A stretch of DNA of 62,959 nucleotides, the filler included, from Dugesia japonica (taxonomy: Eukaryota), in assembly GCA_001938525.1 (NCBI GenBank). It is 6 parts of 6 records of this genome, joined end to end, with 100 filler letters (N's around TTAATTAATTAA, not from the genome) between each part and the next. Parts side by side here need not be neighbours in the genome. Positions count along the whole stretch, not along the records: positions 1 to 13,577 come from MQRL01584519.1; 5 more parts are not named here. One strand, 5' to 3'. Shown piece by piece: positions 1 to 54,305 of this stretch. Positions within the stretch are counted from its first letter, which is position 1. Each line of letters opens with the position of its first letter. A model generated the notes under the pieces. The model saw only the letters and a list, made by a program, of their open reading frames with translations, searched no databases and was not told the DNA's origin. The position numbers and the translations under genes were made by a program.

Positions 1-1762
1 AATTTTACTCCACTCTTTAACGAAAAAGAAATTCGAACGTATTTATTAGTCAATTACCGGACTCTCGTTAACTTACGAAAAATATTATCAGGCAAGAAGT
101 AATCACCGTCAGGAGGAAACTTTCTAGTAATTTCTAATAAATTGGGCATTAATTAACCTTACTTCAAGGATAAGAAAAGTAACCAGTGGATCCTAGACCA
201 GAAAATTAGTTATCCGAGGTACCCGATTGTATTAGTCACTACCGATTGCGAGCACTGTTGCAGAAACCTTACTATTATTATCGAAAAGTAAAATTTTTTT
301 ATCTAAGATTATTATCATTGAATGATGAAGTATAAATATTATGCTTTAATAAATATACAAATTAAATAATTCTTTTGTTAATTTCTAAATTGAAGACCAA
401 TTGTTAAATTGGGCGAGNAAAATTATGGAAAAAAGAATTTGTAAGCTATTAATTCTCAATTATTAAAAGATGGTACTGACAGCAATTTTTGCCTTGCTAG
501 GTTAATAAAAAAATTATAATTGAAAAACCACACTCAAACGTATAAATATCCGTATACTATCAAGTAGCATAATTAAATATGTAATTTTATTTATTATTTT
601 AAGATTCAAACCGAAAAAAAATTAAGATGCTAATAATTTATTTATATAAAATTGTTACCTACAATATTATTGAAAAAACATAAATCCCAGAATTTCTATA
701 ATTAATTCTCCAACAATAAGAATAATGCATTACACTTTCAGGCAAATTCCATTGATTTCGTGGTTGTCTTGTGTCTTTTGTAACTCGGCATGAATGGGAA
801 ATAAAAATCTTGCTACTGATTATCTTAATTAGTTTTTGAATACTAAAAGACTGGCATGTCGATAAACTCCTAAGGAAAACGAAACAACACAACAGGCGAT
901 TGCGTATGTATGCATACTGAGAGAATCCCATCATCCATTTGATGTTTCCACACAGCTTAAAATTTTCTGTTGGTGTGCTCCCACACACAGTCTAACAAAC
1001 CTGCGGGAAGACCATTCTACTAAGGCAACAGTTGCTAAGTAACTCTCATAGTATACCGAAATTTAAAAATAATTTCTTTAGAATACCAAGAAAGGAAAAT
1101 ATTATGATTAAAATTAAATCTATGATCCATAAATAAATAGATAATAGTTGATTTCTTTAATATTACCGATAATTTAAATCTTGCTACTTGCTAAATTAAT
1201 ATGGATAATGATAAATTCAATTTAATAAAGTAATTACTTGAGGGAAGTTGAAAATAAAGTAATTAAGGTATCAAACTACCAGTATCACTGATCTTCCGAT
1301 TTTTTATTATATCCACCAATCTTATTAATTTAATTATTATTGTACTCCTAGTATTAACGCTATAATTTTTAGTATTATTATTACTTTGATTAGGATTATA
1401 CAAGTATTATCATTAGTCAACGCGGTTGTTGTTAACGAAACTACTTATAAGAGATTGTCACCATAATTATATTTACTTTCCATAATATTCTGAGAGTGGA
1501 AAAGTTTTTATCCACCTTCTCTGAGAAAGAGAAGGGTTAGAATAACCATTTTTTCTCTAACCATTTCTCTAACCACCGAGAATGGTTAGCATTCTCGGTC
1601 CTTCTCCTGCCCATCCAGGTTAACCTTCGTAACTTTATGAATAAAAATTGAAAGTAACTATATATTTTTTCTATTACTCTATTCTGTAAGTTTCCAAGTG
1701 TTGTTCCATATCTAAGCTCTGTGACTCTAGGTAAAGTTTTATTTTATTTCTCCTTTTAGTAA

Positions 1763-1918
1763 ATGCCAGCAGAACTACGCCATATGCTACACTGGATCAG
1801 ACAACAACGCCGAGCCGTTAGATTGAAACAATTACTAGCACACTATTTAACGAAAGGCCAGGTGGAACATCCCGACGAGACTGATCTCCAGTGTTTCGTC
1901 GAGATGTTTCCGCTCTAA
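1763..1918 (+). CDS. Family A module D, 51-aa ORF (MPAELRHMLHW...VEHPDETDLQCFVEMFPL)
   Basis: Pyrimidine tract plus AG at 1758-1759, ATG 1763, TAA 1918, AATAAA near 1945. A homolog (VEHPEEQD...EMIPL) lies at ~25275-25330. Confidence 0.5.
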   Translation: MPAELRHMLHWIRQQRRAVRLKQLLAHYLTKGQVEHPDETDLQCFVEMFPL

Positions 1919-2132
1919 CACAAAGTGGATATAGATGAAGAGTAATAAATCGCTCTAAATCATTGTGAAATCACTCATACAGAAATACATTTGTTCTTGT
2001 GTTATTTTAAATGCAAATCTTGTAAAATAAATCTTAGAACTCATTTTTATTTTGTAAAACACTCNTCAAATAAATTCTTACACCTTGGTCGTTAAATATA
2101 GCCTCACTGGTTGTTATTTTAGAATCGGCATT

Positions 2133-2558
2133 ATGGAATTCAAATGGGATGTGAGTCTGGATATTCATTTGGGCCGAACGGCATTTAAACGATACCAAAA
2201 CCCGTATAATCGTGACGCCGGCGTTCTAATCGATNNNNNNNNNNNNNNNNNNNNNNNNNNNNNNNNNNNNNNNNNNNNNNNNNNNNNNNNNNNNNNNNNN
2301 NNNNNNNNNNNNNNNNNNNNNNNNNNNNNNNNNNNNNNNNNNNNNNNNNNNNNNNNNNNNNNNNNNNNNNNNNNNNNNNNNNNNNNNNNNNNNNNNNNNN
2401 NNNNNNNNNNNNNNNNNNNNNNNNNNNNNNNNNNNNNNNNNNNNNNNNNNNNNNNATTATCCTCCTTTGTTCAAAACTACCTTTGGAGTGCTCGAAATGA
2501 GGCTTCTAATAGCAACAATGAAAATACCGAAAAAGAAATTGCAGAGGTTTCCGTGTAA
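2133..2558 (+). CDS. Family A module C ORF (MEFKW...YQNPYNRDAGVLID...), interrupted by an N gap
   Basis: Acceptor AG 2121-2122, stop 2558, AATAAA 2572. Homologs YYNPHNRVAGILVD (~5140) and VQNPFNRDAGIL (~25495). Confidence 0.55.
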   Translation: MEFKWDVSLDIHLGRTAFKRYQNPYNRDAGVLIDXXXXXXXXXXXXXXXXXXXXXXXXXXXXXXXXXXXXXXXXXXXXXXXXXXXXXXXXXXXXXXXXXXXXXXXXXXLSSFVQNYLWSARNEASNSNNENTEKEIAEVSV

Positions 2559-2689
2559 TGCTGTTACATAGAATAAACATTGTTAACCAACTCATTGTTT
2601 TTCTTTTATCAATAAACCCATCTATCTTCCTTTACTAAACTATACATCAGTTAAGATCCAAACTTTCTTCATTGTATTTGTATTTTCAG

Positions 2690-3048
2690 TGCATTCTTCC
2701 TCGAATAGATCCCAAGCCCCGAATAAGAAATTACGTGAAACCAGCGAAGACATCGAGCTTACGTGGGATTTATATCGGCTGGCTAAACGGCGGTGGGAAG
2801 CTGAAACCGCAACAGCCGAGGCTAAAGTTAAACGATATAAGCGAAAGTGCTTGACTTTCAAATCAGAAATAGAAGCAACCCAGTAGCAGGAAAGGGTATG
2901 GAAAGCACAAGTCAAATCCCTCACCGAATTCGTCAAGTCATACCAGGAGCGCGAAAATCATTTAAAAGAGAAAATCCTGAAGTTGAGAACAGCCATACCC
3001 TTGCCCCTACTGTTGATAGATAAAGGTACCCAGACCAACCGCTCGTGA
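2690..3048 (+). pseudogene. Family A module A coiled-coil protein (~119 aa, one internal TAG at 2884), ends IDKGTQTNRS*
   Basis: TTTTCAG|TG acceptor. The frame continues past the TAG to TGA 3048; AATAAA 3079. Homologous to 5662-6019 and 25823-26171. Confidence 0.7.
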
Positions 3049-3163
3049 GCTATCGTGTTTACGATTTTGATTGTCTTTAATAAATTNTTTTAANTGTATC
3101 AACTCTAATTTGCTTCTCTGTTTAAAATTGGTTTTAGCTGACTTAACTATACTTTTCATTTAG

Positions 3164-3546
3164 TGCCACGAATCGTATTCCCGACAAGTTTGCAAAGGTG
3201 TCACCGGATTATGCGACGATTATTGTTAGAACGCCATTTAAAACGTAAAACCGAACAGGCCCTTCTAAGACATCTCACCCAGAGGAACCGATTAATAAAG
3301 AAATTAGATTTAATAGTCAAAAAACAGAGTGACTTGGCTGCCCAAACCATGGCTCCTGAAATACAAAATAAACAAATATTACAGCGAAAGATAGATTTCT
3401 TGAAGCAATGCATAGCCGACCTGTTCAGCCAAATGGGAAACCCGGTATGGACGCAGTGGAATGACAATGATGATACTGCCGCGTTTGACTTTTGGGGGAC
3501 TGACCCGAATCAGTGGTTAGACCCTGGAGTGATGGAAGACATATAA
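3164..3546 (+). CDS. Family A module B, 127-aa basic/helical protein with acidic Trp-containing tail (MPRIVFPTSL...QWLDPGVMEDI)
   Basis: CATTTAG|TG acceptor, open ORF. The homolog at 6140-6522 shows many synonymous differences. Confidence 0.7.
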
Positions 3547-3792
3547 GTTGTAATACTAATAGATGTTTTGATAACTTTTGTCCCATTTTGTATCTATGTC
3601 TATAAGGGAAATTAATGGACCCAAATTAAAGGTGTACGAGTGCGAACCTCCCGTAAANGTCGAAGGTCAACCACTCTGCACTGAATATCCTACTGAAGGG
3701 CGTTGGATTTAAAATTCTTGAAAGGGTTCCCGGAGGGCTGTTTTTCCCCAGCCATCCTGTTCTTACTATCTAACTCAGGTGAAACCTCAACA

Positions 3793-5057
3793 TAAGTAAT
3801 GTTTGAAATGAATACAAAATAGTAAATTGCAAGTAATTCTTTCCACGTAGTACAATATCCTTTTTCGTAAATCGTCATTGCGTGTAACCCATATGCAATT
3901 ACTCTTTCTTACCCATTGTTTTCCTTTTGAGGTATTAATTTCCTAATCGTGTCGAAACTCGCATCCATATTCAAAATAAATTCTTTATTTATATCTGGAA
4001 AACATAGAATACGAGACATCATTAGTGCTACTTTCATTTACTTAAAAACCTCTTCTAATTCATTCGCTCATTCAATTTTCTTGTTACTCAGTCCACTACC
4101 CAGTTTTTCTAGCAATCTAGCTTTTTTCGAATAATCTTTAATAAACTAGCTATAAAAATTGCAAATTCCCGGAAAGCTTCATATATTTTTAAAGCATTTT
4201 GGTTTACCAAAGTTCTTAATTGCTTCTATTTTAGTTGGATCTGTTTTGACAACTTCTTTACTGATAACGTGTCCCAAAAATTTGATCTCCCTTTGCACGA
4301 ATTGACATTTTCTGGATTAACTCTTAGACCAGCGTTCCTAATTTCTGTAAATATTTTATTGATTATTTGATAATGTTGCTCTTTTGTTTCGGTAAATATG
4401 AGAATATCGTCTAGATAAACCATCGTTCCTTTTATTTTTCCGATTAGTTTATTCATCGTTTCCTAGATCGTACCTGGTGCTGCAACAATTCCAAAAAGCA
4501 TTCTATTTAAACAGAATTGACCTTATTTAGACGAAAAAGGCGTCTTTTCTTGAGAATCTTTACTGAGTTTCGCTTGGTAGTATGCATTTCCCAAGCCAAT
4601 TGAGCTAAAATACTACGTACCTTCCAAAACATCCAGCATTTCGTCCACATTTGTTATGAGAAAAGCTTATCTTTCTGTTATTGCATTAAGCTGTCTAAAG
4701 TCTTAGCATATTCGTAAATCCTTTTTTTCCTTTTTCCAAACACAGATTGATGACGTTCTTTACTGCAAATTACACTTCCATTTGATACCATTATAGTTTC
4801 TTGATGGCCTCTTCAATCCTCTCCTCTAGATTCATTGATTAGCGATATAGTTTTATGTTAATTGGACCTCTTTAGTGGTTATTCAATGCTTCGTTAAGTG
4901 TGTGCATTCAATGTCCCATTTAGCCGCCATAAATATATATCCTCATTATTCTGAATAATCTCAGTCAATCTATGATCTTTGTTAATTTTTAGAATCTCCA
5001 TTGCATGTCTCAATAGTTCAGCCGTCTGTATCTGCCTTCCAAATTTTTCTCTATAAT
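3793..5057 (-). mobile_element. Degenerate Ty3/Gypsy pol: reverse transcriptase and start of RNase H
   Basis: YLDD motif (MVYLDDILIF), EKGYCTTWKELLAI RNase H motif, frameshifts. Collinear with 23100-24390. Confidence 0.9.
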
Positions 5058-5661
5058 TGTTGGGGTGAAACACCCAGCTGAAGGAAAATATGAAGGAAAG
5101 GGTCATAGACCGAAGAAGTCGTCGAGTCTTTTTCCGGCGGTACTATAATCCACACAACCGCGTTGCCGGGATCTTAGTCGACAGGTCAAATTTACCTCCT
5201 GTCGAATCGATCGTCGAGCGCATCAGAGATTTTGGTGAGCGACAACGGTACTAGACGTGGTCAGGCCCTGATCGTACCCTGGTAACTTCTTTTCGTTACC
5301 AGTCTCTCCCTCCAACTCCAGCTCCCGCAGTACATGCTTTCATTACTAACCTGCTCTGGGGATAAGAGAGCCCACGGGTAGTGAAGACTCCGAAAACACC
5401 GCACCCGTGTCGGATGTATCAGCTCCTCCCCAGTGACTTATAAGGTGACCTATAATAAAATTGGCTCGGCTAAATTATATGTTAAACGTGTTGTCATTCT
5501 TAATAGATTTTTGTGTGTTTTGATCTCAGATGGTTTCCTAGGTGTATAAGTAGTTTTAGGTCATATATAACTTAGTAATCAGATTTATGACTACTATGTC
5601 GTTTTGGAACATAACTTTCTCTATTTTCGATAATATATATATATATATTTTCTCTTTTTAG

Positions 5662-6019
5662 TGCATTCCTCCTTAAACCGCCCCCCAGCTCCTACTAAAA
5701 AAATCCGTGATACCAGTGAGGACCTCGAACTCAACTGGGATTTATACCGGTTAGCAACATGCCGATGGGAAGCTGAGGTAGCGCAGCCCGTAGTAAAGTC
5801 CTCCGTTATAAGAAAAAGTGTGTTCACTTTAAAAAGGAAGCCGAGGCCTCCTATTTACTGGAGCGCCCTTGGAAAAAACAAGTGGAATCTTTTTCGGAAA
5901 TTATCCGGTCCGGCCATGACCGAGAAAATAAACTGGTTACTGATATCTTGCTTCTCCGGGAGAAAATCCCACTCGAGCCACTAATGATCGACAAAAGTAC
6001 TCAGACCAACCGCTCCTAG
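5662..6019 (+). pseudogene. Family A module A, copy 2 (one frameshift near 5783), ends MIDKSTQTNRS*
   Basis: TTTTTAG|TG acceptor; SEDLELNWDLYRLA shared with copy 1; TAG 6019, AATAAA 6046. Confidence 0.7.
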
Positions 6020-6139
6020 CTTGTTATTGCATTATTGTTTGAATTAATAAATTATTTAATTGTATCAAATTCTTCTGTTACTTGTTTTTCCCGAGTCGTA
6101 GATTAAGTATTCATGAATTTAATTTCACTTTTTCTTTAG

Positions 6140-6522
6140 TGCCTAGAATCGTGTTTCCTACTAGTTTGAGAAGGTGCCACCGCATCCTACGCCGCCTATT
6201 ATTAGAGTGACACTTAAAACGCAAAGCAGACCGAGCTCTTCTTAAGCACCTTGACCAGAGGAATCAACTCATCAAGAAATTGGATTTGGTAGTCCGTAAG
6301 CAAAACGACTTGGCAATCCAAACCAAAGCCCTAGAGGCAGAGACCAGGAAGTTACTGTTAAGAAAAATAGAATTTTTAAAACAATACATCTCTGACCTTT
6401 CCAGACAGATTGGGAATCCAGCCTGGATTCATTGGAACGATGACGAAGATGTCGTCGCCTTCAATTTTACAATAGACGAGCCAGATCAATGGCTAGACCC
6501 TAGCGTAATAAACGATCTATAA
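6140..6522 (+). pseudogene. Family A module B, copy 2 (CGA>TGA stop at ~6208)
   Basis: TTCTTTAG|TG acceptor; aligns without gaps to 3164-3546; AATAAA near 6533. Confidence 0.7.
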
Positions 6523-6762
6523 ATGTTATATTAATAAATGTTCCAAGAGGTATTGGTTTAAATTTTTGTGTAAAGTAAGGGAAATTATTGAACCCAAATA
6601 TAAAGGTTTGTGGGCGTGCACCTCCCATTAAGAGTGAGGTCAACCACCATGAACTGAATATCTACCCTAAGGGCGGTAGGTTAAATTCTTGAACGGGTTC
6701 CCCTAAGGGTTGTTTTCCCCAGCACACGATAATTTTCACTCAACTCAGGTGGGACCCCAACA

Positions 6763-8001
6763 TAATTATTGATGTCTACCTTGCACTTTTTCTGAATATG
6801 ATACACAAAAGTATTCTGTAATTCAACTCCACCAATTAAATCTGGTATTAATTTCTCCACTATAATAAATGTTACTTCCTTGCACACCTTTGAAACTACA
6901 ACTTCGACACGTATCTTTCCAATCGTCTCCTGTGAGCTGTTATTCGCGCAATGCAATAGTTCCTCGATTTTCTCTAACATTATTTCTCCGTGTCTATTAA
7001 ATCCTTTCATGCTCATCACATTTATTCTTGCTCCTGTATCCAATAAACACTCAAACTGTTCACCCTTGATCATCACTGAAAGGCTGGGTCTCCTTTGCAT
7101 TTTATCATACGAAATTTCTGCCTTCTGTTTTTCTTCAATTATTCCTATCACTTCTGCTTTGTTAACTTCCGCATCATCGAAAATTTCTCTATTTAGGAAT
7201 CTGTAAACTTTTTCTCTCACTTTATTTATCTCATCCCATTTCTCGGCCTCTTGAGGATATTTAAACGTTATCTCGTTTAATGGATGGCTCCAACCAACTC
7301 CTATTATTAATGTTTAATTATTAATGTTTTTATTAATGTTCGAATACATTCTTCTGCTCTGTGACCTGGTATTTTACATCTACGGCTTACAATTTCTGTG
7401 AACATCCTTTTGACATGACCCATCTTACTACACCTAAAACATTTTGGTGCTTTCTTGTCTGCCCTTTTTGTGACAAGTCCAACACTCCACATGAGAATTT
7501 TTAAACACTCTCTTATTGTATGCCCATAACTCTGGCATGTTCAACACTGTAGTTCTGTTCTTTTTGTAACTATATCAATATTTTGTCTCCTTTCTCCGAA
7601 ACGTTCTCCACGTGTTACACCAGTATAACTCTTTACTATGTTAATAAGTTCTCGTCTTTCTATTTTTTCAATCAAAGATAACATTTCCTTAATGTCTTCT
7701 ACTTTCTTCAATTTTCGCATGATAATCTCTTCTTCTGCTTTTTTACTATATGCACAAATTACTAGCACTTTTGATAAGAGTTTTTCTTTCTTTAGCTCTT
7801 CATGTGCTAAAAATGTATCGACCAAATCTTCCATTTTTTTATAAAACGCCTCAAATTTCATCACCATGTTGATGGCTTTCAATATTCTGTAAATCTTTTA
7901 TTATGTCTCTTGCTCTCAAAAGCTAATCGCAATCTCTCTCGATTTCCATCAGTTTTCTTCAATGTCTTTACATATACATCTGTTTGGCTGAAACAACCTT
8001 T
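6763..8001 (-). mobile_element. Degenerate Ty3/Gypsy gag (zinc knuckles) and aspartic protease; continuation of 3793-5057
   Basis: LLDTGARINV protease motif; CFRCSKMGH and CKIPGHRAEEC knuckles. Confidence 0.9.
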
Positions 8002-9050
8002 TGTGAAATATGGAAACCAGTGAAGGAAATAAATTAAAGGTTAATATGAAAATGAATAAGAATAAGAAATAAGAAATAAAAGAAATATTGATCTATAAAA
8101 TAATAAGGAAAAGATTATTAAATAATAATAACTGAAGTTAACAAGTTTAAGAAATATCAAACAAAATCTAGGGTAAAACAATAAAAAGAAAATAAAGTTG
8201 TATAAAGCTGTTGAGAAAAGGAAGAATTGAATAAATATTAAAATCTACAATGATTGAAGATAATCAATAATTAGATGGCTAAGGTAAAATGTGCTCAGAA
8301 AATAAGTCAAAGTGATCGAAAAGAAGAATGTGAATAAAACAAGGAATATCTATTATTAATTATAATTTGTTTAAATGTGTTGAAAGTATCCATGTTATAA
8401 AAATAAAATTATATTGATGAGAGAAAAAGAAAGATTAAAACAAATAATCATATTAAAATATTTTGATATTTTAGAGAGAAATTATAGGGGAAAACAAAAT
8501 AAATCATCATGATCATTATAAATAATAAAATAATAGATTATGAGTCAGGTTTAAAAACAAGAATTGTATTATTATTATAATTTTAGAAAAAATATAAAAT
8601 GTGAAATTATTATTATTATCGATAAATATAATTAAAATTATTATTATTGAATAAATATAATTATTTATAATGAACCCGGATGAATTATAACAAGAAAATT
8701 ATATGTAGAAGAAGATCTGATGATTTTGTGTAAGAATTTAGGATTGATATGTTTATATTTGCATGTGATTGTGGAGTTATCGCTATTTCTAAAACCCTTA
8801 CAAGTTTCAGAAAATTATTATTTTTTAAGAAAAATAATTATTTTTTTTAAGCCTCTCCACTTGAGGAAAAAAATATAGAACATCTGTGAGCACATAATCC
8901 ACTACAGAATTAACAAAAAATAAAAATAATCACGCCCATATTTGGACATCTCTGTAGAAGCTATGGGTGAACAACGTACGATTTCTTGCATTAGCAGAAA
9001 TCTGAAGTGGACGCCAACTGTGACTGTCAAAATTTGACGATACAGTGAGG

Positions 9051-9181
9051 TATAAAAGGCAAAGCAAATTTCTGTAGAATCAGACTAAAAATTTTCATTT
9101 TAAACTCTTGTTCACTTATTGTTAAAAGTGCCAAGTAGAATTCTCTCACATTGAAGGATCGGAACAAATCAAAAAGTAATT
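9051..9181 (+). promoter_or_regulatory. TATA box, putative start site (~9080) and non-coding leader ending AAATCAAAAA|GTAATT (donor 9175/9176)
   Basis: TATAAAAG at 9051, TCAG initiator-like sequence ~30 nt downstream, no ATG before a GTAAT donor. Confidence 0.4.
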
Positions 9182-10382
9182 CGAGTCATTTTATTTTTTT
9201 TAAAATCATTTATTCGACTATAAAGAGGGACTGAGGTGATGATCACTACTCATTAGCTTTGCTAGCAGTGGTGGCCGACACCGTTCAGCCATTCACTTCA
9301 CGAGATCATCCACCACGAGTCACCATGAGTTATGATGAGTTTTGTTACAGATGTTACGATAATATATGATTATGCTGTCCATGTTTATGAAGATATGAGA
9401 TGAAATTGAATAGTTAATTATAATTGTGAGACAAAGATTATATGATGATGATAAGACTGTAAAAGACATGAGTTGATAAGTGTTAATAAGCGAGGATAGT
9501 ATTATGAGAGAGAGGATAACGAGAACTGATAGTGAGTAAATGATAATGAGAGATATACGATTGTGAAAGGAGTAATACGGGTGATGAGAGAATGTTTATA
9601 AAAGTTTTGTGCTCAAATGTCGAATAGAAAGAGATGATGCTAACATCGGGCTCTGAAAGAGTTGTTTTTAAATATGGAAGAGTTGTTGACAGTTGATAGA
9701 TAAATATGATGAAAATGTATTAATAGATTTGAGTAGGAAAGAGATGTGGTTAGGTGGTGGTGTGGTTGAATTCTCTCATGATAATTTATTTTTCTATAAT
9801 GATTTTCTGGTGTATATTGACAAGTGGTAGTGTAAATGTGATGAAAATATCAATTTGGTTTATGTTTATGNNNNNNNNNNNNNNNNNNNNNNNNNNNNNN
9901 NNNNNNNNNNNNNNNNNNNNNNNNNNNNNNNNNNNNNNNNNNNNNNNNNNNNNNNNCAGGAGGACCATCTGACAGTTGGAGGGATGTGGATCGTCATTAA
10001 CATATTGTTCAAATGAAAGTTTAATCGAAACAAAAATTGTGATGACACGATAGAAGATATGATAATGAATGAGTAGCAATGAGGTGTATATGAATGAATG
10101 CAAGTAACATGATGATCCACGTCCAACCATAATGACGGATGATTGATGCATGTGATGCCAAAAGATAATTCCGTAATTATTATTTTATTATTCCACCATT
10201 GTTATATAAATACCTAATCGTGTAGCATTAGTTGTATTTTCTATATAGATAACTACGCAAATCACCAAGACAGAAGCTATACAATCATTGAAATCAGATA
10301 GATGCGTCTTCTAATCAAACATCACCAACAACATGCCAAACTCGTTGAGTTCAATCGGTGAATACAGAACCAATATCGATCC

Positions 10383-10757
10383 GTGGCGGATAACACAGGA
10401 TCGCCTTTGACAAAAGATCAAGATTTGCTAACTATGAAGGAGCAATTGAATCAACAACAGGAGTTACTGAAACAGAAGTCAGCGATAATCGATGACTTAC
10501 AGAAGAGGATAGAACAGCAAGATCAGGAATATAATGATCGAATAGCGGACATCACAATCGAACAAGAGCGTCGGGAAAAAGGGCTGGTATCTTTGCTCAT
10601 TTGCTCTACAGAACTGAATCGACATCAACAACACCTAATTTCGGCACACCTCGGAACAGAAGAGTATACTACAATGTCAGATCGTTTAAATACTACAATA
10701 GAGACGGCGCTTCGACAAGTCCTGATGCAATCTGATGAAACTTTGAATATCTCCTAA
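10383..10757 (+). CDS. Family B coiled-coil ORF (QLNQQQELLKQKSAIIDDLQKRIEQQ...ERREKGLV)
   Basis: Open 124 codons with heptad-like Q/E/K/L composition; candidate acceptor upstream at 10247-10248; true start uncertain. Confidence 0.5.
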   Translation: MADNTGSPLTKDQDLLTMKEQLNQQQELLKQKSAIIDDLQKRIEQQDQEYNDRIADITIEQERREKGLVSLLICSTELNRHQQHLISAHLGTEEYTTMSDRLNTTIETALRQVLMQSDETLNIS

Positions 10758-10965
10758 ACTTTGTTGTGATTCATATGTGATGTATGTGGTAAAATCAATA
10801 TAGTTTTCGATCTAGCATTTTTATGTTTTCGACTTCTTTGTCCAGTTAAACAGAATTAAAGATAAAATTATATGAGAATTATATTAATTCCGATTTATAA
10901 ATGTCTTCTTTATATAAATATGATGAACAATGCAATAAGCAATTTTAACGTTTTACTTATTGTAG

Positions 10966-11321
10966 TGTCTGAGGCCAAAAAGTTAACCGCGGAAACTTCG
11001 CTAGCGGACATTCACAGAAAATGGGTATCGGTACAAAAGAAATCGCAAAGCGAAATAACTGAACTACAACGGAAGAACTTATCATCAGGAGAAACCAATA
11101 CCAAGTTAAAAGAGAGAGATCTAGCCCTGTCCCAGTCTTGTCGAGAGATGACCGATATCGTCAAGGCCTATGCTGATAGAGAAGGAGTATTAATATCTAC
11201 GGTGAGGATATTAGCACAAGTTTCGAAGTCGGAGAAAGGAATCTCAAAGGAACAGCCCAGGAAGTCATTGAATTGGATGTATGAGAAACATTGGATGGGT
11301 GATAAATATAGATACGAATAA
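10966..11321 (+). CDS. Family B coiled-coil module ((M)SEAKKLTAETSL...MTDIVKAYADREGVL...)
   Basis: TTGTAG|TG acceptor in frame; TAA overlaps AATAAA 11317-11322; resembles module A (LTEFVKSYQERENHL). Confidence 0.6.
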
Positions 11322-13621
11322 AATTTTGTACAGATTGTATTTCTGAATTTTTGAATATAGCAGGAGTTAATAATGATTAATGACGTTTAATTATAAAACG
11401 AGAGCCGGATAGAAATTGGAACCTAAGACGGGATACAGTATAGTCCCGCTAAATCCGTAAAAATGGGGATCGTGTTACTAGAAAGAGTAACACAAGTTTC
11501 TGTGGTTGCTGGGTATCATGTCCAGACAGAAAAGATATTTGAAAGAAGATCGATTATGATAATATTAAAATTAAAGATCAAAATGGATAAGGATTAAGAT
11601 AATATCAAAAAGCCTAGCAACCCCACAGGAATTTTGGGGGCTCAGCCGGGATCCTTATTTAAACTTATCTGAGAAAGTTCTTTCAACAGATTTTAGCTGA
11701 CTCCAACTTATAAAAGCAATTAATTTAACAAGTGCGATGAAAGAATAGATCATTTGTTATTACATTAACATTTTATATGTTCGATCTTCTGGAATAATAT
11801 CTTGTGATTGGAGGTGTCCTTTATTGATTCATTCATCGAGAGTGGAGGCAAATTGTGTGGTATGTTTTGATCGATATGATGACCTTAATAATAAAATATT
11901 CCGTTACTAAGTATAATTATAAAAGATATTCAAATAAAAATAACTGAAATTTTATACGTTAATTTTAGCTTTTAACAAATATTTGTAGAAAAAATCCACA
12001 AATGAATAAAAGGACTAAATAAAAAGAAAATNACAAGAAACNGTTTTTCTATTTTCTTGAGAACTTTTAGAAATTTTTTTTTGCAATACGAATTTCAAGA
12101 GTTAATGCATATTGTAGTATAATGCATGTTTTTGTAATAATACTAATAGGAGTTGAATAAAGAAAAAATCGGAAACTTTTTTGTAGATGAAATATGAAAA
12201 ACTACATGAATACAAAAAATGTAATTTAAATGAAATATTCCAAAAGTTAAAGAATAATGGCAACTTTATAAGGATCGGATATTTATCAATTTTGTGCAAA
12301 TAAAAGAGGATATGACGACAATAAACGAGAAAGAGAAGATGAGGATCAATTCAAGGATATAAATGTACAAATAAAAGTAGAAATTGATTTTTATAAAGTA
12401 TTTAACACAATTTAGTATTTTAAGAATTTAATTAATATGCCTTCTTTTTCTTATTTGTTTTGCTTGATTTTCTTAATGGGCTTAGATAATGTTCAACCAC
12501 CACTAGACGACAAAACTGAATTTCAATAAAATGGTCAATTTTATTTTCAATAAAATAATTAATTAAAATTATAAAAACGAAATATGAAGTCCAGAAACTA
12601 ATAAGAGCTCAGGATAAAATGAATTTTTAGGAGATATGAATGGATGATCTCGGAAAGTAGTGAGAATTTGTGCATTGCTTATAATAATTATTTTGATATT
12701 TTAAATGATTTTATCTATTTATGGTTCGCTTTTTACTTAAAATTTTCGTGAATTAATTCGAAGGAAAATAATGATTTTCTAAAATAACAAAATTTAATTC
12801 ATATTTAATTTCGGTAAATAAAATCGATTATATTAAATTGCAAAAAAGAGGAAATCATTTAAATAAAAAAAACCAGTGTGGTTGTGATTCATTCGTTAAT
12901 TCCAAATTTATATTTGAATTTATTTAATCATTTATAATTTAATTGAATAAATTTTCATTCAATGGAAGGGCCGTATAAAATTTTAAAAAAAAGCTATTTA
13001 ATTTTGAGAAACTTGTACTAATATAGTATTAATATAGTAAATAAGTTTCCATTAAAATAATAGGCATCAACAACTAGAAATATACTTCACAGATTAAGTC
13101 TTGTACTGAGTAGTAACATATTCAAAAAAACAATTATCAAATAGCAGTATTACCCTAATAAATAACAAAGAAATTTTAATAAATAACCATTTAAATNTTT
13201 CAAAATCAGACTGTACAGCAATTAATTGGTTATTTCAGAATGTTATTGTATATTCACGGTGTAGGGATAAAATTAATTTTGCGTACTTATACATGGATAA
13301 CCAATTTTTATTAACTTTTGTTGAAATGTCGCTGAAAAACACTTAATACAATAACTATTATAAAGATATTTGTAATTTATGCTAAAGAATACTATGCTAA
13401 AAAANNNNNNAAAAATTTTCATAAAAGTACAAAACAAAATGGGCATTTTTGAAAATTTTAAAAAAAATACAAAAAAATAAAAAATTCTAAGTATAATACA
13501 ATAATAATATCTAAAAGACTTTTCTGTATTAATCAAAAAGATTTTTTTTTGAAAAATTTTTTGTGTTGATTTAAAAANNNNNNNNNNNNNNNNNNNNNNN
13601 NNNNNNNNNNNNNNNNNNNNN

Positions 13622-13633
13622 TTAATTAATTAA
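13622..13633. other. Artificial contig spacer TTAATTAATTAA flanked by N runs (also 22415, 31829, 43052, 54250)
   Basis: An identical 12-mer with stops in all six frames, embedded in N runs five times. Confidence 0.95.
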
Positions 13634-14737: not shown

Positions 14738-15013
14738 ATGAAAGAATATACTTGTAATGATTGTAAAGAAACATTTGATCGTAAAATTAATTTAAATAAA
14801 CATTTAGATTTAGGTGAATGTAGATTCAAAATTAATTATGAATGATTTTGTGGTTATTGTAATTAAAAATTTAAGATTAGTAAAAATAAATTTAAACGTC
14901 TAGGTGTTGTTTATTTAAAAGAGGAAATTGAAGAAATTCCAAAAGGTCCAATTCATAAATCTAATATTAAAAGTTTTACATTTAAGAATAATTATCAATA
15001 TTATAAGAAATAG
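14738..15013 (+). pseudogene. Zinc-finger protein remnant (MKEYTCNDCKETFDRKINLNKHL; second CGYC)
   Basis: CxxC-F-x5-L-xx-H pattern read directly; internal stops. Confidence 0.55.
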
Positions 15014-15125
15014 ATTTCTGTTATTTTGTATTCCTAGAAATGCAAACGCAACCGCAAATGCAAATAGTTTTTTTNNNNNNNNNNNNNNNNNNNNNNNNNN
15101 NNNNNNNNNNNNNNNNNNNNNNNNT

Positions 15126-16406
15126 TTTCAACATTTATTTTTGAAAAATGATGTTTTGAGAATTTCACTTTCATCTGGTTCAATTAATAATTTAATGTCT
15201 TCTGGAGATATTATTTTTAAATATTTACAATCTTCAAATTCATTAGATATTTGTAACTCAATGTTGTATTTTAAAATAGAGATTGATGTTAAAGATGGAG
15301 ATAAACTAACTTTGGAAAATAATTGGTTTCCAAGTTTATTTAAATCAATGAGATTAACTTTAGGATCTTCAAATGTAGAAATAATCAACGATCCTGGAAT
15401 AGCATCAACAATATTAAATTTAATTACAACTAATTCGACTTATAAAAAGATATATGGTGAATTATCAGGTTGGTTACCAGATACAAACAAAGAAGATTTA
15501 GATGTTAGTAGCTGGGGAGCAAATATAGGTTTTTATAAAAGAAATAAACTTTATAACCNGAAAAAGAAATTTGAAGGTTATTTTCCTTTGAAAAATTTAT
15601 TTGGATTTATGCAATGTTACAACAGATTATTATATATTACAATAATTCAATTTACATGTAATAGACAAATAAATAATAAATTATTATTTTATGGAGATAA
15701 AGATAAAACAGCAACTTTAAAATTAACAACTCTTGAGTTACATTTACCAGAATTTAGATTACTTCCAAAAATGGAAGTAAATCATTTAGAAAAAATCAAT
15801 ACAAATAAATCTATTCAAGTTTCATTTTTAAATAGAATTATTTCAAAAACAACTTTAGATTCAGGAAATTATTATTCACTTAAATTAAGTAATTTATCTT
15901 ATAAATCAATATTTATATTTATAGGTGTAAAAGATTCAGAAATTTCTTATCAAAAGAATAATAATTTATTTATTCAAAGAATTTCTAAAACTGTTTAAGA
16001 AGGAACTCCGGCCGTGGAAGTAACTACTTACCATTCTCTTAAAAGTATTCAAGTACAATTGAAAATTGCATATTANCCTATAAATGAATGTAAATTTAAT
16101 ATTGATAAAAATGAAATGATTTTTCCTCATTTAAAATATTTAAATTGTTGTAAAGACTTTTTCACTGAACCACAATTATCTTAACAATAGTTTGGTGATT
16201 TATATCCGATCTTTTGTTTTGATGTTAGTTCTCAAGATGATAAGTTAAATATTAATACTGTAGATGTAACTTTACATATAACTAAGGACGGTGATTTTAA
16301 AGGAAATTTATATTGGTTTATTTTAGAAGAAAAACATATTGAAATGAAATTATCCAATTCTAAAATGATTATGATTGAAAATAAACGAGGTGAAAATTTA
16401 GGTTAA
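15126..16406 (+). pseudogene. Polinton major capsid protein (double jelly-roll / hexon-like)
   Basis: LENNWFPSLFKSMRLTLG..EIINDPG, FPLKNLFGF and C-terminal LYPIFCFDVSSQ motifs typical of Polinton/adintovirus MCPs; disrupted after 15998; 5' end lies in the N gap. Confidence 0.75.
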
Positions 16407-16507
16407 TATTTGAGCTACTGCAGTAGTCCTAAAATTCTATAATTCTAAAAAATTAATTGTGATCCGTGGGTTATATTTTTTTAATTTTAAGTTTAAAATA
16501 TATAAAA

Positions 16508-17796
16508 TGGATAATAAATGTATTTGTGAAAATTGTAACAAAATATTACTTAAAAAAAATAAATCTAGACATTTAAAAATATTTAAACAAACTGGTGGTG
16601 ATCTTCAATTTTCTAAAATAACAAGTGTAATTTTAAAACCATTTACTCGAGAAAAATATCCAGGAGAAAGACATTAATTTAAACATAATTATACAGGACC
16701 AGAAACAAGATAAGATTTAAGATTAGATTTTGAAAATAGCCCTAAACTTGGAGAAGAACCAATTAATAGAGTTGATGAATCTGCTTTAAAACATGATTTA
16801 TCTTATTAATCAGAAAACATTGGAGATAGACAATTAGCCAATGTAAATTTAACTCATGATTTAAATAAAATTGAAAACCCAACTGTTTCTGAAAAGATAC
16901 ATAGAGGTTTAGTAAAATTAACAATGAAAGATAAAATTATTTTAGGTGCTGGCCCTATTATTAAAAATAAAGAAAATGAAGGAGTTCACTTATTTCGCTC
17001 CTTACTTGAAAACGAACTTCATAAAGATTATAGAAAACCTAAAAAATATTTAAAAGTAATAATAAAAGAAAATATAATCCTTGGGGTTGTGATATTATTG
17101 ATATGGTTAAAAAATCTATTGATGGATTTAGATATATTTTGGTTTGTATTGATTTATATACAGGATTCGGTTTTTGTGTTCCAATGATTAATAAAAATCA
17201 GGAATTATGAAGAGAAGCTTATGAAAATATATTTGAAGAAAACAATAGAATTCCAAATTATATTTGGTTTGATAAAGAATCAGCAATTAGATCAAAATAT
17301 TTTTATAAATTTCTTAAAGAAAATGATATTAAATTGTATCATACAGAAATGAGGGTAAATCAGTTTTTGCTGAAAGATTTATTAAAACTTTAAAAAGTAA
17401 AATGTGGAAATATTTTACTATAGTTGGAAATCAGAAATGGAATAAAAATTTGTTAGATAAAATTGTAAATGATTATAATAATACAATTTATTCTTCTATA
17501 AAAACAACTTCAAAATATGCTAGTGAAAATCCTGAAAACATAAAAGAAATAATAAATCAACATAATCATGAAAATTATGAAAAGAAAAACAGAAATTTAA
17601 AATTGGTGATCGAGTTAAAATATTTAAATGCAAATATAAATTCGAAAAAGGTTTTACAGCTAAATGGACAAACGAAATATTTGTAGTAACTCAAGTTTAT
17701 AAAACAAAACCTTTTACTTATGAAATTACTGATTTAGAAAATAAAAAAATTTTTGGTAGATTTTATAGTAATGAACATCAGAAAACTGTTTTATAA
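16508..17796 (+). pseudogene. Zn-finger + parvovirus-type phospholipase A2 domain fused to rve integrase
   Basis: HNYTGP..PINRVDESALKHDLSY (PLA2 motifs) in frame with ELHKDYRK; then WGCD, WFDKE, AERFIKTLK (DDE) and KFKIGDRV..KGFTAKWTNEIF. Confidence 0.85.
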
Positions 17797-18163
17797 AATT
17801 TAAATTAATAAATTAAAAATGGTTAATAATTCTTTTAAATTTATTTTAAAAAGTACTTTAGAAAAATAACTTATTAAAACTGTTAAAGAAAAATTAAGAA
17901 TTAATGTAGAGATAACACAAAATAATAATATTGAAAAAGATAAAGGTAAAGAGGAGTGACAAAAGACCTAAAACATTTTGGAAATGGTTAACTACTGATA
18001 TTTCTGAATACATGTCTAAAGAAGAATTAGATGAAATTCAATTTTATAATAATGTAAATTTTATAAATGTGGGTATGCTTAATTGAACTATATTAAATAT
18101 GGGTGTTAGTAAATTGGCTAATGATTACATAAAAGATAAATCTTAATTTTTATTAAATAAAAA

Positions 18164-19178
18164 ATGTCTCAGTTAATTAGTAAAAAAGATGATACTTGGT
18201 TTGGTGAATTCTTTTTTATTAATAGCAAAACAAACCTAGCAGAAATTGATTTGTTTACAAAGGAAGTATTTATAGAAAGTAATTCATCATTAATTTGTCC
18301 ACTTAGAAAATTAATTAATACTTATAATAGAATTCCAAATAATTTATGTGTTTTAAAAGGAAGTGTATTTTTGAAATCTTNNNNNNNNNNNNNNNNNNNN
18401 NNNNNNNNNNNNNNNNNNNNNNNNNNNNNNNNNNNNNNNNNNNNNNNNNNNNNNNNNNNNNNNNNNNNNNNNNNNNNNNNNNNNNNNNNNNNNNNNNNNN
18501 NNNNNNNNNNNNNNNNNNNNNNNNNNNNNNNNNNNNNNNNNNNNNNNNNNNNNNNNNNNNNNNNNNNNNNNNNNNNNNNNNNNNNNNNNNNNNNNNNNNN
18601 NNNNNNNNNNNNNNNNNNNNNNNNNNNNNNNNNNNNNNNNNNNNNNNNNTTATTTTTTTTTTCGAACATCAAAATATAGTTCCAGATTCTTTAATTACTC
18701 CTTTGCAAGTTATTCAATGGTTTATAGAAAAAAATTATTTAACAAATAAATCAAGATCTATGGAACCCTCTAGGATTAATGTAGTTCTAAGTAATAAACC
18801 AAATGAAATTATTCCTTGTGATAAATTATCTAAACAAAAAAAGAATTTAATAATTTTTGATGATGTTGTAAATGTGATAGATCAAAAAATTCAAAAAAGT
18901 TATTTTACTAGAGGTATACATGTAAATTTTAATGTAATTTATATTACTCAAACTTATTTTCATTTAGACAAAAACTCTATTAGAAATAATTCTAATTGTT
19001 TTATATTTTTTAAATTAAATAAAACTAATAAAGATAATGTTTATTATGATTTGTTTAGTAATATATTTTCAAGTAATATGGAATATGATTACATTGGAAA
19101 ACTAAGTATAATAATTATTATTTAGATAGAGAAGCTGATGTATTAATAGAAGACTTATTTGAAGAGGAAAAAATGTGA
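18164..19178 (+). pseudogene. A32/FtsK-like DNA packaging ATPase
   Basis: Walker B LIIFDDV, YFTRGIHVNFNVIYITQTYF, SIRNNSN; Walker A probably in the N gap. Confidence 0.8.
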
Positions 19179-21485: not shown

Positions 21486-22470
21486 AAATTTGGATCAAAA
21501 AAAAGTGAAGTATTCAAACACTTTCAACACAAACATTAAATTTCTCCAGAACAACATCACATTACATGGAAAACACTAGGAATAAGCTACATTTCTAGAT
21601 TAAATAATTTTTTATTATCACATTTACATTCGATTCCTATTGTTTGTCTTACAAATCAAAATACTCAAATATTTCTTTGTGAGTTGTCGCTTTTCTTGTT
21701 TTAATATAAGCTAATAAAGAATAAATATATTGGTCATCTTCTGAAAAACTACTAGTAAAGAAATCACCGTGTTTTTAGTTAAATAATAAGATTTTGAATA
21801 ATTAATCATATTTTTTTTATAATTTCTCTAATTTTAATTCTTAAATTGTTATCAATTTGCATGATTCTTTTTTAATAATTTATTTTGATATAAAGTTTTT
21901 ATAAATGTAAATTTTTCCTTAGAATCATCACTTTTTAAAAATTGAAAAATTTTAGCAAGTGAATAGATTTTTTAATTTTTAAAAGCTATTGTTTTCTCAA
22001 AATCGTTGAAAATGTCCAATTTTTGATGCTTTTGAGACTTACCAAAATTTGAAAACATTTTTGAGCGAACTACATTTTGAAAAAATTTGTTTGAATAAAA
22101 GTATTATTTTTAACTTATATTGAGTGATTTTGGATGATTTTGAATAAAAAATTTAAAAGCTAAATTAAGTGTAGCTACCCTTAGACTACCCTAACTTATC
22201 TACTAAGTGAGATTTAAGCGCTAAAATTTATATTTTGATATTTTTCATCACAAACCTCATTTATTTCTTTAAGGACTAACTTTGACGAATTTAGGAATTT
22301 TCTTTTACATATTTGGAGTCAGAGTAAAATTTACTATTAAAGACACTTTAATTATTGAATGTTAAAAGAANNNNNNNNNNNNNNNNNNNNNNNNNNNNNN
22401 NNNNNNNNNNNNNNTTAATTAATTAANNNNNNNNNNNNNNNNNNNNNNNNNNNNNNNNNNNNNNNNNNNN

Positions 22471-25246: not shown

Positions 25247-26792
25247 TTTTCTACTTAAATGCTACATCCTAAACTGTTGAACACCCAGAGGAACAGGATT
25301 TAATGTACTTTACGGAAATGATTCCGCTGGAACCTTCCTCTCTTGATATCTGTCTAGCAGATGGGGTGTCTAAGACCTCATTGTTTTCTTTAATAAATAT
25401 TATTATTGGTTAAATAACTTACTTTTCATATTTCTTTTACAAAAAGAATTGAAATTAGTTCCGCTCAGTAATGGAACCATGAATTTCCACAGAGTGCAGA
25501 ACCCATTCAATCGTGACGCAGGAATATTATAAGATAAAAAAAATCTGCCCCAATAAGAACGGATAGATCAACGCGGTAGGAACGTGGTCAAACGCTGGCT
25601 TTACCAGAATTTGCCTCCCAGACACATGAGTTATTTAGATCCTCATTCTAATCCGTCGCAATCTTTTACTAAGGATTTTGGTAACTATCGTTTATCGTAC
25701 ATTCAATAAATCTTATACGTTAAATAGATTTGATTTTATATCTAAACTGCTGTCATAAACCCCATGATTTTACATCCAAACTTTTTTTTTATAATCTCAG
25801 TTTTTAACAGTCTATTTTTAAGTGAACAAAAACTCGTACAAAATCTTTGAACTTCTACTAGGAAATATAAGAGTCATAGTGAAGATCAAGAAATGGCATA
25901 GTAGTTATTTAAATTAGCGAAGCAACAAACGGAGGCAAAAGTCGCTACAGTCTAGACTAAGAAACGTCAAATAAAAAACACTTTTTCTCGTAGAGGCGTA
26001 CGTACACAAGAACAAGAACTTCCTTTAAAGACACAATTAGAAATCTTCACCGCATTGCTAAAACAATCACACAAAAGATAAGATCACCTGGTCTAAGATG
26101 TGTTAAAATTACGGGCACAGATGTCTCTTGAACGTGTCATGATCGATCCTGGTACTTAAACCCGCCAATGAATTAAAATCGAAAAAATAAATCTTTGCTA
26201 ATCATGATTTCTTTTTAATTTACTTAGTCTATGCTTTTATAATATAATGATTGATCTTTGTTTCCTAAGTGCGTACATATCAACATCGATGTACAATTAT
26301 CATTGCAAATTACAAGGATTACGACTAAAACATCTTTACTATAAGCATCGAGTAAAGATGTTACTCCAGCATACGTCAAATTGAAACAGCACGCAAATTT
26401 CAGTTATTTATTGCTAATTCAACTATAAACTACCTTTTCCACAGTCCACAGTCCCAAAAAACCTACTAAGCGTCAAGCTTTGAAATAACTCAGATGACGC
26501 AGCTCTATTTGACCTGGAAGACGAAATACCACCTAGCTAGTGCTAGCGAATTAGTGTTTTTTAAATAAATTCTCAGAGCCATAGAGTCGTTTAATCGTTT
26601 AATAAGATAATAGAATTAGAAGAATAATATTGAACTCAGACCGAAGGAATACTCAAACTACGAGTTTCAAATCATCGACTCTATTCCGAAGATCTAGTAT
26701 AGGAACGCTAGACTAAATTCTTAGCGGGGTTCTACTGGGTGACCGACCCCTAGGTCATAAAATAAACATCCAACCCAGATGAAACCTCAACA
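25247..26792 (+). mobile_element. LTR-like element, family A divergent copy 3 (5' truncated) with decayed modules D, C, A, B
   Basis: Ends GATGAAACCTCAACA. Modules in the same order; acceptors AG|TG at 25823 and 26270; SEDQEMA..LFKLAK, MIDPGT*T and DAALFDL homologies. Confidence 0.75.
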
Positions 26793-41700: not shown

Positions 41701-42950
41701 GAATGGCTTCATGGCCTTAGTGTGATCCCAAAACATAGTTTTGGCTACTACTGTAAAATATGCCGGTAACCGTTTTATCTTATCCTCGTCATCCCATCCA
41801 CAAGTTTTGGCATACATTTCATAATTTTGGATAAATTCGTCTAATTTTTCTGGTATTCCGCTAAAATATTCGCCATCGAATTTTATTTTCCATTTCGGCC
41901 GCTGGTTTTCCGTTTTTGTCGTCATGGTTTTCCCTTTGTCGGGGTTGGATTTTATTTGGAAAATTTCGTTGACCGATGGGTTTGTTTCGTTTCCCTGATT
42001 ATCTTTACTTAGTACTAATACTTCTGTGCTTTCTTGGTTACTACCTACTACCTCTATTATTTTTATTTCTTCTGAAGTATAACTGAGTTCACTTAATCGA
42101 TTTCTATCTGTTGGTGGATTACTGAGTGTTCGTCTCTGGATTATTTGATTTTCTTTGTCACTCGGGCTACTCCTTGAGCTGATTGACTCTAGAGGTTGTG
42201 GTTCAAGTTGACATGTTGTTTTGTTGAGATTTGTCTTTCTGATCGAATAGATGTATTCTTCATGTTCAAGATATAGTGATGATCTGAATTTATTTCTAGA
42301 AGATTTGGCTCGTTTAACCTGTGTTACTCTTAGAACTGAATTTAGGGTAGATAATCCGGATGAGTTAGATCGTGTAACTGGTTTTCTATTTTCTGAGTCG
42401 GAATCTATTTTTTCAGAGTCCGGCTTGTTGACTGCCTATTGTATTTCTGTTTTCGTTTTGTGATTCTTGTAATTTTATCTTCTCTAGAATAAAAATTTAC
42501 TTCTAATTGTCTTTACTTAAGAGACAATCACTCCTTCCTGATTGTAAATTTACTGTATTATCGTGCTGCTTTACATTTGCCATCACAATTCCACAATCTG
42601 CTTCCTTTTTATCCGTTAATTAAGTCTTCCTATAATCTTCCTTTCAATTTTCCTTAATTAAGTCTTCCTAAAACTGCTAGATTATTTCTTTCTAAAAGAG
42701 GAAGTACACATTTTGCTGTAGTATAGGCGAACTCTTCTGGCTTTCTTCCTTTTAAGGGCGGTGTAACAGTGCACACTTTTTCTAAATTTATGGGGGAGTA
42801 CTGAGAGTTTTCTGAAGGATCGACGACCCGGTTTGGAGTACTCTTTCGTGCAGGCGAACGCTTCCGGCTTCTTTTCCTTTAATGCTTTTTCTAATCAGGC
42901 TTCCTTTAGTGTGCTTAATTACGTACCTTTAACATACTGGTTAATGTACT
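38800..42950 (-). mobile_element. Degenerate LTR-retrotransposon gag with long downstream non-pol coding remnant
   Basis: FSG..LDEFIQNYEMYAKTCGWDDEDK and RKEQREEKPQAYMMELKR gag motifs; CYKCNREGHMAKEC knuckle at ~41005-41050. Confidence 0.75.
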
Positions 42951-43007: not shown

Positions 43008-43172
43008 NNNNNNNNNNNNNNNNNNNNNNNNNNNNNNNNNNNNNNNNNNNNTTAATTAATTAANNNNNNNNNNNNNNNNNNNNNNNNNNNNNNNNNNNNN
43101 NNNNNNNATTAATTTTATTAATATTATTATTATTAATAAAAAATAAGCAACGCCATTTAAAATAAAATTTTA

Positions 43173-49659: not shown

Positions 49660-49948
49660 ATGGTATGTGACAAATGTCAAGGTAAATTAAAAAAAGTTGT
49701 TAGTCCAAATGTGAAAAGAACAGAAGAAGACAAGAAAAATGCTACTTTTAAATTAAATGAAAATAAGTTATTGACTGCAAAATCACGAGCAAGNCATACT
49801 CCATATGGAAGAACATGTAAAATTTGCAAATGTAATGTACATCTGGAGGGTGCTTATTACTGTAATGGGTGTGCTTTCAAAAAAGGAATTTTTTCTGTGT
49901 GGTAAAAAAGTGGTTGAAACAAAATTTTTGAATATGAGTACAACATAA
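49660..49948 (+). pseudogene. CRIPT: CRIPT (cysteine-rich PDZ-binding protein) homolog, intronless, 2-nt frameshift near 49897
   Basis: MVCDKCQGKL..KLNENKLLT..PYG..CKICK..YCNGCAFKKGI; the shifted frame continues CGKKVVETKFLNMSTT*. Confidence 0.88.
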
Positions 49949-54104: not shown

Positions 54105-54305
54105 TAAAGTTTTATTTTCAATGGCGTTATTTATTTTTTATTAAACATTTGCTATTGTTTTCTCACACACACACACAAAGCTATTTATATATATAAAGAA
54201 AATATNNNNNNNNNNNNNNNNNNNNNNNNNNNNNNNNNNNNNNNNNNNNTTAATTAATTAANNNNNNNNNNNNNNNNNNNNNNNNNNNNNNNNNNNNNNN
54301 NNNNN

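Follow-up and report, generated by a model that had tools for sequence, protein, structure and literature searches.

Putative splice-made start codons in two orphan gene families of an LTR-like repeat found among Gypsy elements of Dugesia japonica

The closest described systems to the genes reported here are the env genes of gypsy and the springer subclade (errantiviruses, Metaviridae), retroelement ORFs that lack a start codon of their own. The start codon of Drosophila gypsy env is made by splicing AT to G (as described in PMC2585583), and insect endogenous retroviruses are described as splicing env, according to subclade, to an AU dinucleotide (the springer subclade), to a short peptide or to a Gag peptide (10.1101/2023.08.03.551782). 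The gypsy junction, AT|G, was mapped by experiment and serves one gene, that of an F-type envelope protein located after pol. The two gene families described below, A and B, are likewise retroelement ORFs without their own start, which would be completed at a splice junction, but their A|TG junction is proposed from sequence, and they are two genes with no relation to each other, neither of them an envelope gene, in an array of four or more within a repeat flanked by a target site duplication. The errantivirus pattern of a donor AT and an acceptor G is not found, since the acceptors precede a TG that is read as N|TG; the model of B is a single helix, and Pfam finds no F-type envelope glycoprotein in B1, the first 65 residues of A1, B2 or e4b (Table 1). 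A and B would thus work like gypsy env without being members of that group, because they are not env and the phase differs.

Small ORFs in or overlapping an LTR are best known as accessory genes of complex retroviruses (MMTV sag, HIV nef, foamy virus tas/bel2), where they are expressed from spliced RNAs that end at one common poly(A) site, the start being either an ATG of the gene itself or part of a coding first exon. The present array differs in having an AATAAA for each ORF, and no sequence relation to those genes was found. The adenovirus major late unit joins one leader to alternative acceptors with alternative poly(A) sites and so makes one protein per mRNA; the likeness is an analogy only, to an unrelated virus whose start codons lie inside the exons. 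Among Gypsy-type elements, the MDG1 group carries two small accessory ORFs, sORF1 and sORF2, with a poly(A) site between them, but as described these lie upstream of gag, are unspliced and have their own start codons, and sORF2 is a membrane protein (10.1101/2025.03.14.642691). The planarian Burro elements are also Gypsy-type and are described as having extra coding capacity and accessory ORFs (PMC6431247); these extras are mostly known domains in one giant polyprotein whereas A and B have no Pfam match above cut-off, a distinction that is drawn from the published description of Burro.

Among the papers listed by literature searches, none describes spliced ORF arrays in planarian LTRs; the scope of these searches stops short of the S. 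mediterranea genome paper and Repbase, where the family may already figure. Two things are likely new here: that the split falls as A|TG, and that two orphan genes with no relation to each other would both use it in an LTR-bounded array of several genes; the splice-made start itself is already known from gypsy env, and no new principle of gene control is involved. If the proposal is true, splice-made starts, known from one env gene of insects, also serve an array of several accessory genes in a flatworm retroelement, Metaviridae reach the expression strategies of complex retroviruses, and it is explained why ORF callers miss such genes, which have no ATG and no homologue in the libraries searched.

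AG|TG sites and the reading frame of modules A and B

The window, by which we mean the whole 62,959-nucleotide stretch of D. japonica DNA that was analysed (six joined parts of assembly GCA_001938525.1), was originally predicted to hold seven modules that begin with TG directly after a splice acceptor. AG|TG was read at all seven coordinates (2690, 3164, 5662, 6140, 10966, 25823 and 26270), each of which is the first exon base, directly 3' of the AG. The 17 nucleotides upstream of each AG|TG site form a T-rich tract of 65–82% pyrimidine, a branch-like YTRAY motif is present at only five of the seven, and an alignment of the sites on the junction leaves no column but those of AG|TG invariant between -25 and +31. 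As background, 32 of 435 acceptor-like sites on both strands of the window are followed by TG (six of these 32 are themselves predicted sites), and NTG makes up 108 of the 1918 codons (5.6%) of 13 window ORFs. The TG is constant at the seven listed sites but not at other acceptor-like sites of the same elements, which read AG|TA at 1760, AG|AA at 2123 and AG|AT at 10249.

The seven modules are not independent cases: one repeat, present as three decayed copies that each carry A and B, accounts for six of them, and the seventh (10966) is a distant A-like ORF in another element. The A-type sites are 2690, 5662 and 25823 and, weakly, 10966 (2 of 1000 shuffles score as well); the B-type sites are 3164 and 6140 and, weakly, 26270 (15 of 1000 shuffles, the best of six tests). 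The two families are unrelated to one another, the comparison of A1 with B1 being matched by 556 of 1000 shuffles, and only two independent gene families carry the TG.

Table 1. Coordinates of the repeat copies, their modules, the Gypsy sequences around them and the element that carries the 10966 site; positions count along the window.
Feature	Position	Strand	Remarks
Module Y, copy 1	1760..1945	+	acceptor-like AG|TAAATG; own ATG 1763; one internal stop; AATAAA at stop
Module Z, copy 1	2123..2558	+	acceptor-like site; own ATG 2133; cut by assembly gap 2235-2455; AATAAA 2572
Module A1	2690..3048	+	AG|TG acceptor; N|TG frame of 119 codons lacking Met; internal stop 2884; KGTQT 3022; AATAAA 3079
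Module B1	3164..3546	+	AG|TG acceptor; 127 codons, all open; one long helix predicted, tail acidic/aromatic
Right terminal region of copy 1	3547..3792		ends CAACA; adjoins RNase H of Gypsy pol
Decayed Gypsy RT/RNase H, host of insertions	3793..5053	-	84% to 23098-24359, which matches RVT_1 and RT_RNaseH
Copy 2	5058..6762		inserted, 1705 bp; TGTTG begins its 9-bp terminal inverted repeat; carries A2, B2 and part of Z
Module A2	5662..6019	+	AG|TG acceptor; frameshift near 5785; KSTQT 5993; AATAAA 6046
Module B2	6140..6522	+	AG|TG acceptor; 127 codons lacking Met; codon 24 is the one stop; AATAAA 6533
Decayed Gypsy protease and gag end, host	6767..7975	-	RVP PF00077 above cut-off
Candidate leader of 10966 element	9051..9240	+	TATA box and Inr-like start; ATG-free stretch; donor-like A|GTAGAA 9135, A|GTAATT 9176, G|GTGATG 9236
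ORF e4a	10249..10757	+	acceptor-like AG|AT; codon 19 is an in-frame ATG; two early stops
ORF e4b	10966..11321	+	AG|TG; 118 open codons; weakly A-like; AATAAA on stop
Copy 3, most decayed	25270..26792		carries the end of Y, a shortened Z, A3 behind acceptor 25823 and B3 behind acceptor 26270; CAACA at right end

That the conserved frame begins N|TG holds for the better-preserved modules and fails at 25823 and 26270, where the downstream homology lies in another frame, these copies being decayed and frameshifted. The five better-preserved modules also have, as predicted, no in-frame ATG in their first dozen codons. The first in-frame Met is codon 17 in B1 (not common to B2) and codon 62 in the 10966 ORF, and in A2 Met is absent from the 42 codons before the frameshift, as it is from all of A1 and B2. 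Upstream of the AG there is no in-frame ATG at six of the seven sites; the exception is 10966, with three.

The frame has been constrained. B1 and B2 are 65% identical and differ at first, second and third codon positions of the N|TG frame by 29, 23 and 80 substitutions, which amount to 51 synonymous and 44 non-synonymous codon changes, as against 7 to 89 and 3 to 90 in the other two frames, where 8–13 stops occur. The first 39 codons of A in copies 1 and 2 differ by 15 synonymous and 10 non-synonymous changes, and the pattern is already present in the first 12 codons (6 to 1 in B, 5 to 4 in A). These substitution counts indicate that the N|TG frame is under purifying selection from its first codons, and because the synonymous pattern is present from the first 12, translation began no later than the acceptor. 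Substitutions at the third position affect 80 of 126 B codons and 20 of 39 A codons, yet the G of the split codon is kept; the rough probability of finding TG in both families and kept in five copies is 3e-4, or 0.09 if the TG was inherited once, both being post hoc figures. Since all copies but B1 and e4b are broken, the account given here describes the ancestral element.

A and B are preceded by two further ORFs, Y and Z, whose ATG lies 4 and 11 nucleotides into the exon, respectively; neither has the TG, and they serve as an internal control. An 18-amino-acid homologue of Y is found at 25276-25329 (67%, E 1e-4), and Z has homologues in copy 2 (about 5090-5440) and copy 3 (25473-25619). AATAAA falls within -4 to +31 of eight of the ten module stops against a background of 0.11, in an interval that was chosen post hoc, and two of the signals overlap the stop. 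The order acceptor, ORF, poly(A) signal is repeated four times in a row in copy 1, as Y-Z-A-B. Together with the selection on the N|TG frame, the missing Met of A1 and B2 and the ATG of Y and Z, this layout supports, from the sequence side, a non-coding leader ending in A that would be spliced to alternative last exons.

Origin of the start codon

A phase-1 split N|TG can encode Met, Val or Leu, and its G is fixed if the codon is an initiator Met but is a wobble base if it is Val or Leu. The constraint that begins at the acceptor, the lack of Met, the invariance of the would-be wobble G and the absence of TG from the ATG-bearing sister ORFs all point to an ATG made by splicing, which is the best reading on sequence grounds and in these respects upholds the original prediction; neither a donor nor a junction read was found in the searches described below. 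We judge it somewhat more probable than all the other accounts taken together that A and B are orphan genes in a likely Gypsy-type LTR, in which the final A of a non-coding leader is joined to TG by splicing to give the start codon. The AG|TG sites would be spliced to a leader that ends in A and has no ATG, one upstream leader would serve Y, Z, A and B as alternative last exons, and a separate poly(A) site for each last exon would yield one protein per mRNA. Y and Z would use their own ATG, while the start of A and B would be the leader A plus TG; A and B would be translated from spliced RNA only and be silent in unspliced or read-through RNA, so that the element, if this is true, gains their production from spliced RNA alone. 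We infer that a single leader is shared by the modules.

The prediction had gone on to a "one-of-N" expression switch, which is beyond the evidence: the layout is one of one gene per mRNA, and it applies equally to Y and Z, which need no split codon. Exclusivity would be per mRNA, and nothing shows a switch at the level of the cell. A wider picture, which we put forward tentatively and hold to be possible rather than probable, is that of a virus-like late unit inside the LTR, with a leader ending in A and at least four orphan genes having their own poly(A) sites, in which two unrelated genes converged on A|UG, a start that comes into being only on splicing, and A, a coiled coil with an LC8 motif, may disturb host transposon silencing.

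The main rival is an ordinary phase-1 intron, in which splicing would attach A and B to a short coding exon with its own ATG, derived from a pre-gag peptide, from part of gag or from the beginning of Z, and the split codon would be Val or Leu. Both it and the favoured leader ending in A have precedent, because insect env uses either route according to subclade, env of the ZAM, Beagle and idefix subclades being described as starting from a coding leader (10.1101/2023.08.03.551782). The Z of copy 2 contains a donor-like G|GTGAG in phase 1 at 5235, and e4a likewise opens in phase 1, but with AT. The 5235 candidate is seen in copy 2, copy 1 being gapped there, and a coding leader calls for the same rare NTG codon in two unrelated genes together with a fixed wobble base. 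If such a leader were common to Y and Z it would put both out of frame, while a non-coding leader ending in A leaves them free to use their own ATG. We regard a coding leader as rather unlikely.

Initiation at a near-cognate codon, with genomic or spliced G|TG read as a GUG initiator and no leader A required, accounts for the invariance equally well, as an in-frame GTG is present at all seven sites, and the donor-like G|GTGATG at 9236, with no ATG upstream, could supply the G. If unspliced, however, the codon would stand behind the T-rich tract and invariant AG that are typical of acceptors, and each gene would need a promoter of its own. A T-rich tract and AG make a poor start context, and GUG starts are weak in animals; we consider this explanation improbable.

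The carrier repeat and its Gypsy surroundings

The original prediction treated the modules without a carrier and missed their position inside an LTR-like mobile element. Self-comparison of the window revealed three copies of one repeat (about 1760-3792, 5058-6762 and 25270-26792), each with A followed by B. Copy 2 is an inserted element: it is flanked by a TAAT target duplication (5054-5057 and 6763-6766), the sequences on either side of it, taken together, match an uninterrupted Gypsy protease-RT copy without a break, and the empty-site joint 5047-6765 is represented by 46 reads of RNA run X4, 8 of X7, 1 of X3 and 9 contigs of the set X2. Of 2363 TGTT..AACA end pairs, copy 2 alone has both a 9-bp inverted repeat and a 4-bp duplication. 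The CAACA right end is present in all three copies, and the right-end 20-mer common to them occurs at three places in the window (0.05 expected). No TGTTG-type left end matching that of copy 2 was found in copy 1, no target duplication was seen for copies 1 and 3, and the left end of copy 3 lies beside Gypsy gag.

Short direct repeats at both ends of copy 2 are not significant (268 of 500 shuffles), nor is a comparison that sought a second LTR in 1-1760. Copy 2 is most likely a solo long LTR, which fits because its ends share neither a direct repeat nor a significant long inverted repeat. Flatworm solo LTRs with 4-bp duplications are in print (as described in PMC4558846). We infer the LTR status, and the row Y-Z-A-B may be either sense or antisense to the gag-pol of the parent element.

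The split start could also be right and its carrier be a small DNA transposon with TG..CA ends and 4-bp duplications, of a Ginger-like kind, or an internally deleted element. The window yielded no paired LTR around gag-pol, primer site or polypurine tract for the cassette, the left ends differ among the three copies, and the two ends of copy 2 can be paired as an imperfect inverted repeat of 32 bp. Shuffled sequences often do as well as this longer pairing (82 of 2000 and 42 of 500), only 9 bp of which are perfect, and the copies contain no transposase or integrase ORF; both the long terminal inverted repeats and the Gypsy-like integrase ORF of Ginger-type transposons are absent from copy 2, which might still be a deleted derivative. 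Short TGTTG..CAACA ends are the usual LTR form, and a carrier other than an LTR is quite doubtful.

All three copies adjoin or interrupt the same minus-strand Gypsy family, at RNase H (3792), at the protease-RT border (5058-6762) and at gag (25270). This shared context reflects either a nesting preference or that the repeat is the LTR of that Gypsy family itself. We note that the left end of copy 2 (5058-5085) and the left border of copy 3 (25276-25295) both fall near the VEHP stretch of Y, copy 1 having no TGTTG there, so the repeat boundary may cut through Y.

Leader search, the e4 element and the predicted proteins

Three RNA runs (X3, X4 and X7; about 6, 25 and 25 in 100 of each being used) and the contig set X2, whose summed depth is not a copy number, were mapped to 3095-11950, a stretch that holds the acceptors 3164, 5662, 6140 and 10966 and leaves out 2690, 25823, 26270, Y and Z. 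Most bins over B1, A2/B2 and e4a/e4b had an RNA depth of 0 and none exceeded 2.9, as against about 100 over the flanking Gypsy pol; most mapped reads were less than 90% alike, and expression of close relatives did not show in these samples. Among the joints and loose ends listed, none fell at the four mapped acceptors. A search of sequencing runs gave a share of 0.39 for X2 and at most 0.05 otherwise, with no RNA run among the matches listed. No donor for copies 1-3 was found within the window, and no conserved TATA and Inr on the + strand was found in those copies; GTGAGT at 2151 was rejected as a donor because it is in phase 0 and absent from copy 2.

Planarians trans-splice, and acceptors without a visible donor have the look of trans-splice sites, but a start supplied by a flatworm spliced leader is hardly credible unless this species has a leader ending in A, and had rightly been rejected in the original prediction: the reported leaders all end in ATG (according to PMC12582326), and such an ATG opens a non-conserved frame, with 7 synonymous against 89 non-synonymous changes in B and 13 and 12 stops, that ends after four codons at 5662 (copy 2), as had been claimed.

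The element that carries the 10966 site has a candidate leader (Table 1), separated from the 10966 ORF by an assembly gap (9871-9956); the TATA and Inr-like pair ahead of it is one of three such pairs on the + strand of the first 27 kb. ORF e4b need not be spliced, because the 33 open codons upstream of its AG contain the three in-frame ATGs, and the acceptor-like site of e4a is in phase 1 with AT, where a leader A would give no start. Neither the two flanks of this element as an LTR pair nor its right end as kin of copies 1-3 was significant. Between 9320 and 9960 the + strand is poor in C (4-10%, with 22-28% G) and has many stops and an ATG at its start (9325); it looks like strand-biased C-to-T decay of a coding region.

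No Pfam family scored above cut-off in B1, in B2, in e4b or in the first 65 residues of A1, and a protein word search gave no relatives among six candidates for B1 and two for A1. Against 1.84 billion representatives, a B1+B2 profile matched three, all repeat proteins over a short stretch, which were rejected. The Atlas gave only unnamed clusters; neither B1 nor the first 65 residues of A1 reached the recognition threshold. None of 251 stretches from metagenome scans had relatives, eight metagenome pattern matches had no homology to the modules, and among viral contigs 3 of 177 matched, one by a 32-amino-acid coiled-coil match that was rejected. The model of B (pTM 0.35) is one long helix with a low-confidence tail, and no hydrophobic stretch is seen by eye in A or B.

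The end of A reads DKGTQTN in A1 (KGTQT at 3022-3036) and DKSTQTN in A2 (KSTQT at 5993-6007) and is decayed in copy 3. Both fit six of the seven positions of the LC8/DYNLL motif, [D/S]-K-x-[T/V/I]-Q-[T/V]-[D/E] (as given in PMC3078936), and [KR]xTQT occurs three times in the six frames of the window, two of them in module A. On this motif match, A would probably be a coiled coil that the dynein light chain LC8 holds together as a dimer. LC8 is described as acting in fly transposon silencing (PMC7861614), which for A is no more than a lead. If the proposal is true, the array offers orphan proteins, clearly under purifying selection, as candidates for an effect on the planarian piRNA system.

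Several unrelated features were seen elsewhere in the window. A 12-bp spacer with stops in all frames lies between N runs at 13622-13633, 22415-22426, 31829-31840, 43052-43063 and 54250-54261; because these spacers are an assembly artefact, the joins in the window are no evidence of contiguity. A Polinton-like remnant (14919-19125) has a double jelly-roll capsid domain (PF21738, above cut-off) and, by eye, pieces of ORFs that resemble an integrase and a packaging ATPase. On the minus strand, 38900-42440 holds a further decayed element of Gypsy type, whose gag has a zinc knuckle (PF00098). Two host genes were also seen: at 57816-58858 (-) one for a Pim-like kinase, which has short introns and a product 86% identical to a protein of Schmidtea mediterranea, as suits a planarian host, and at 49660-49905 (+) an ORF that by eye is CRIPT-like.
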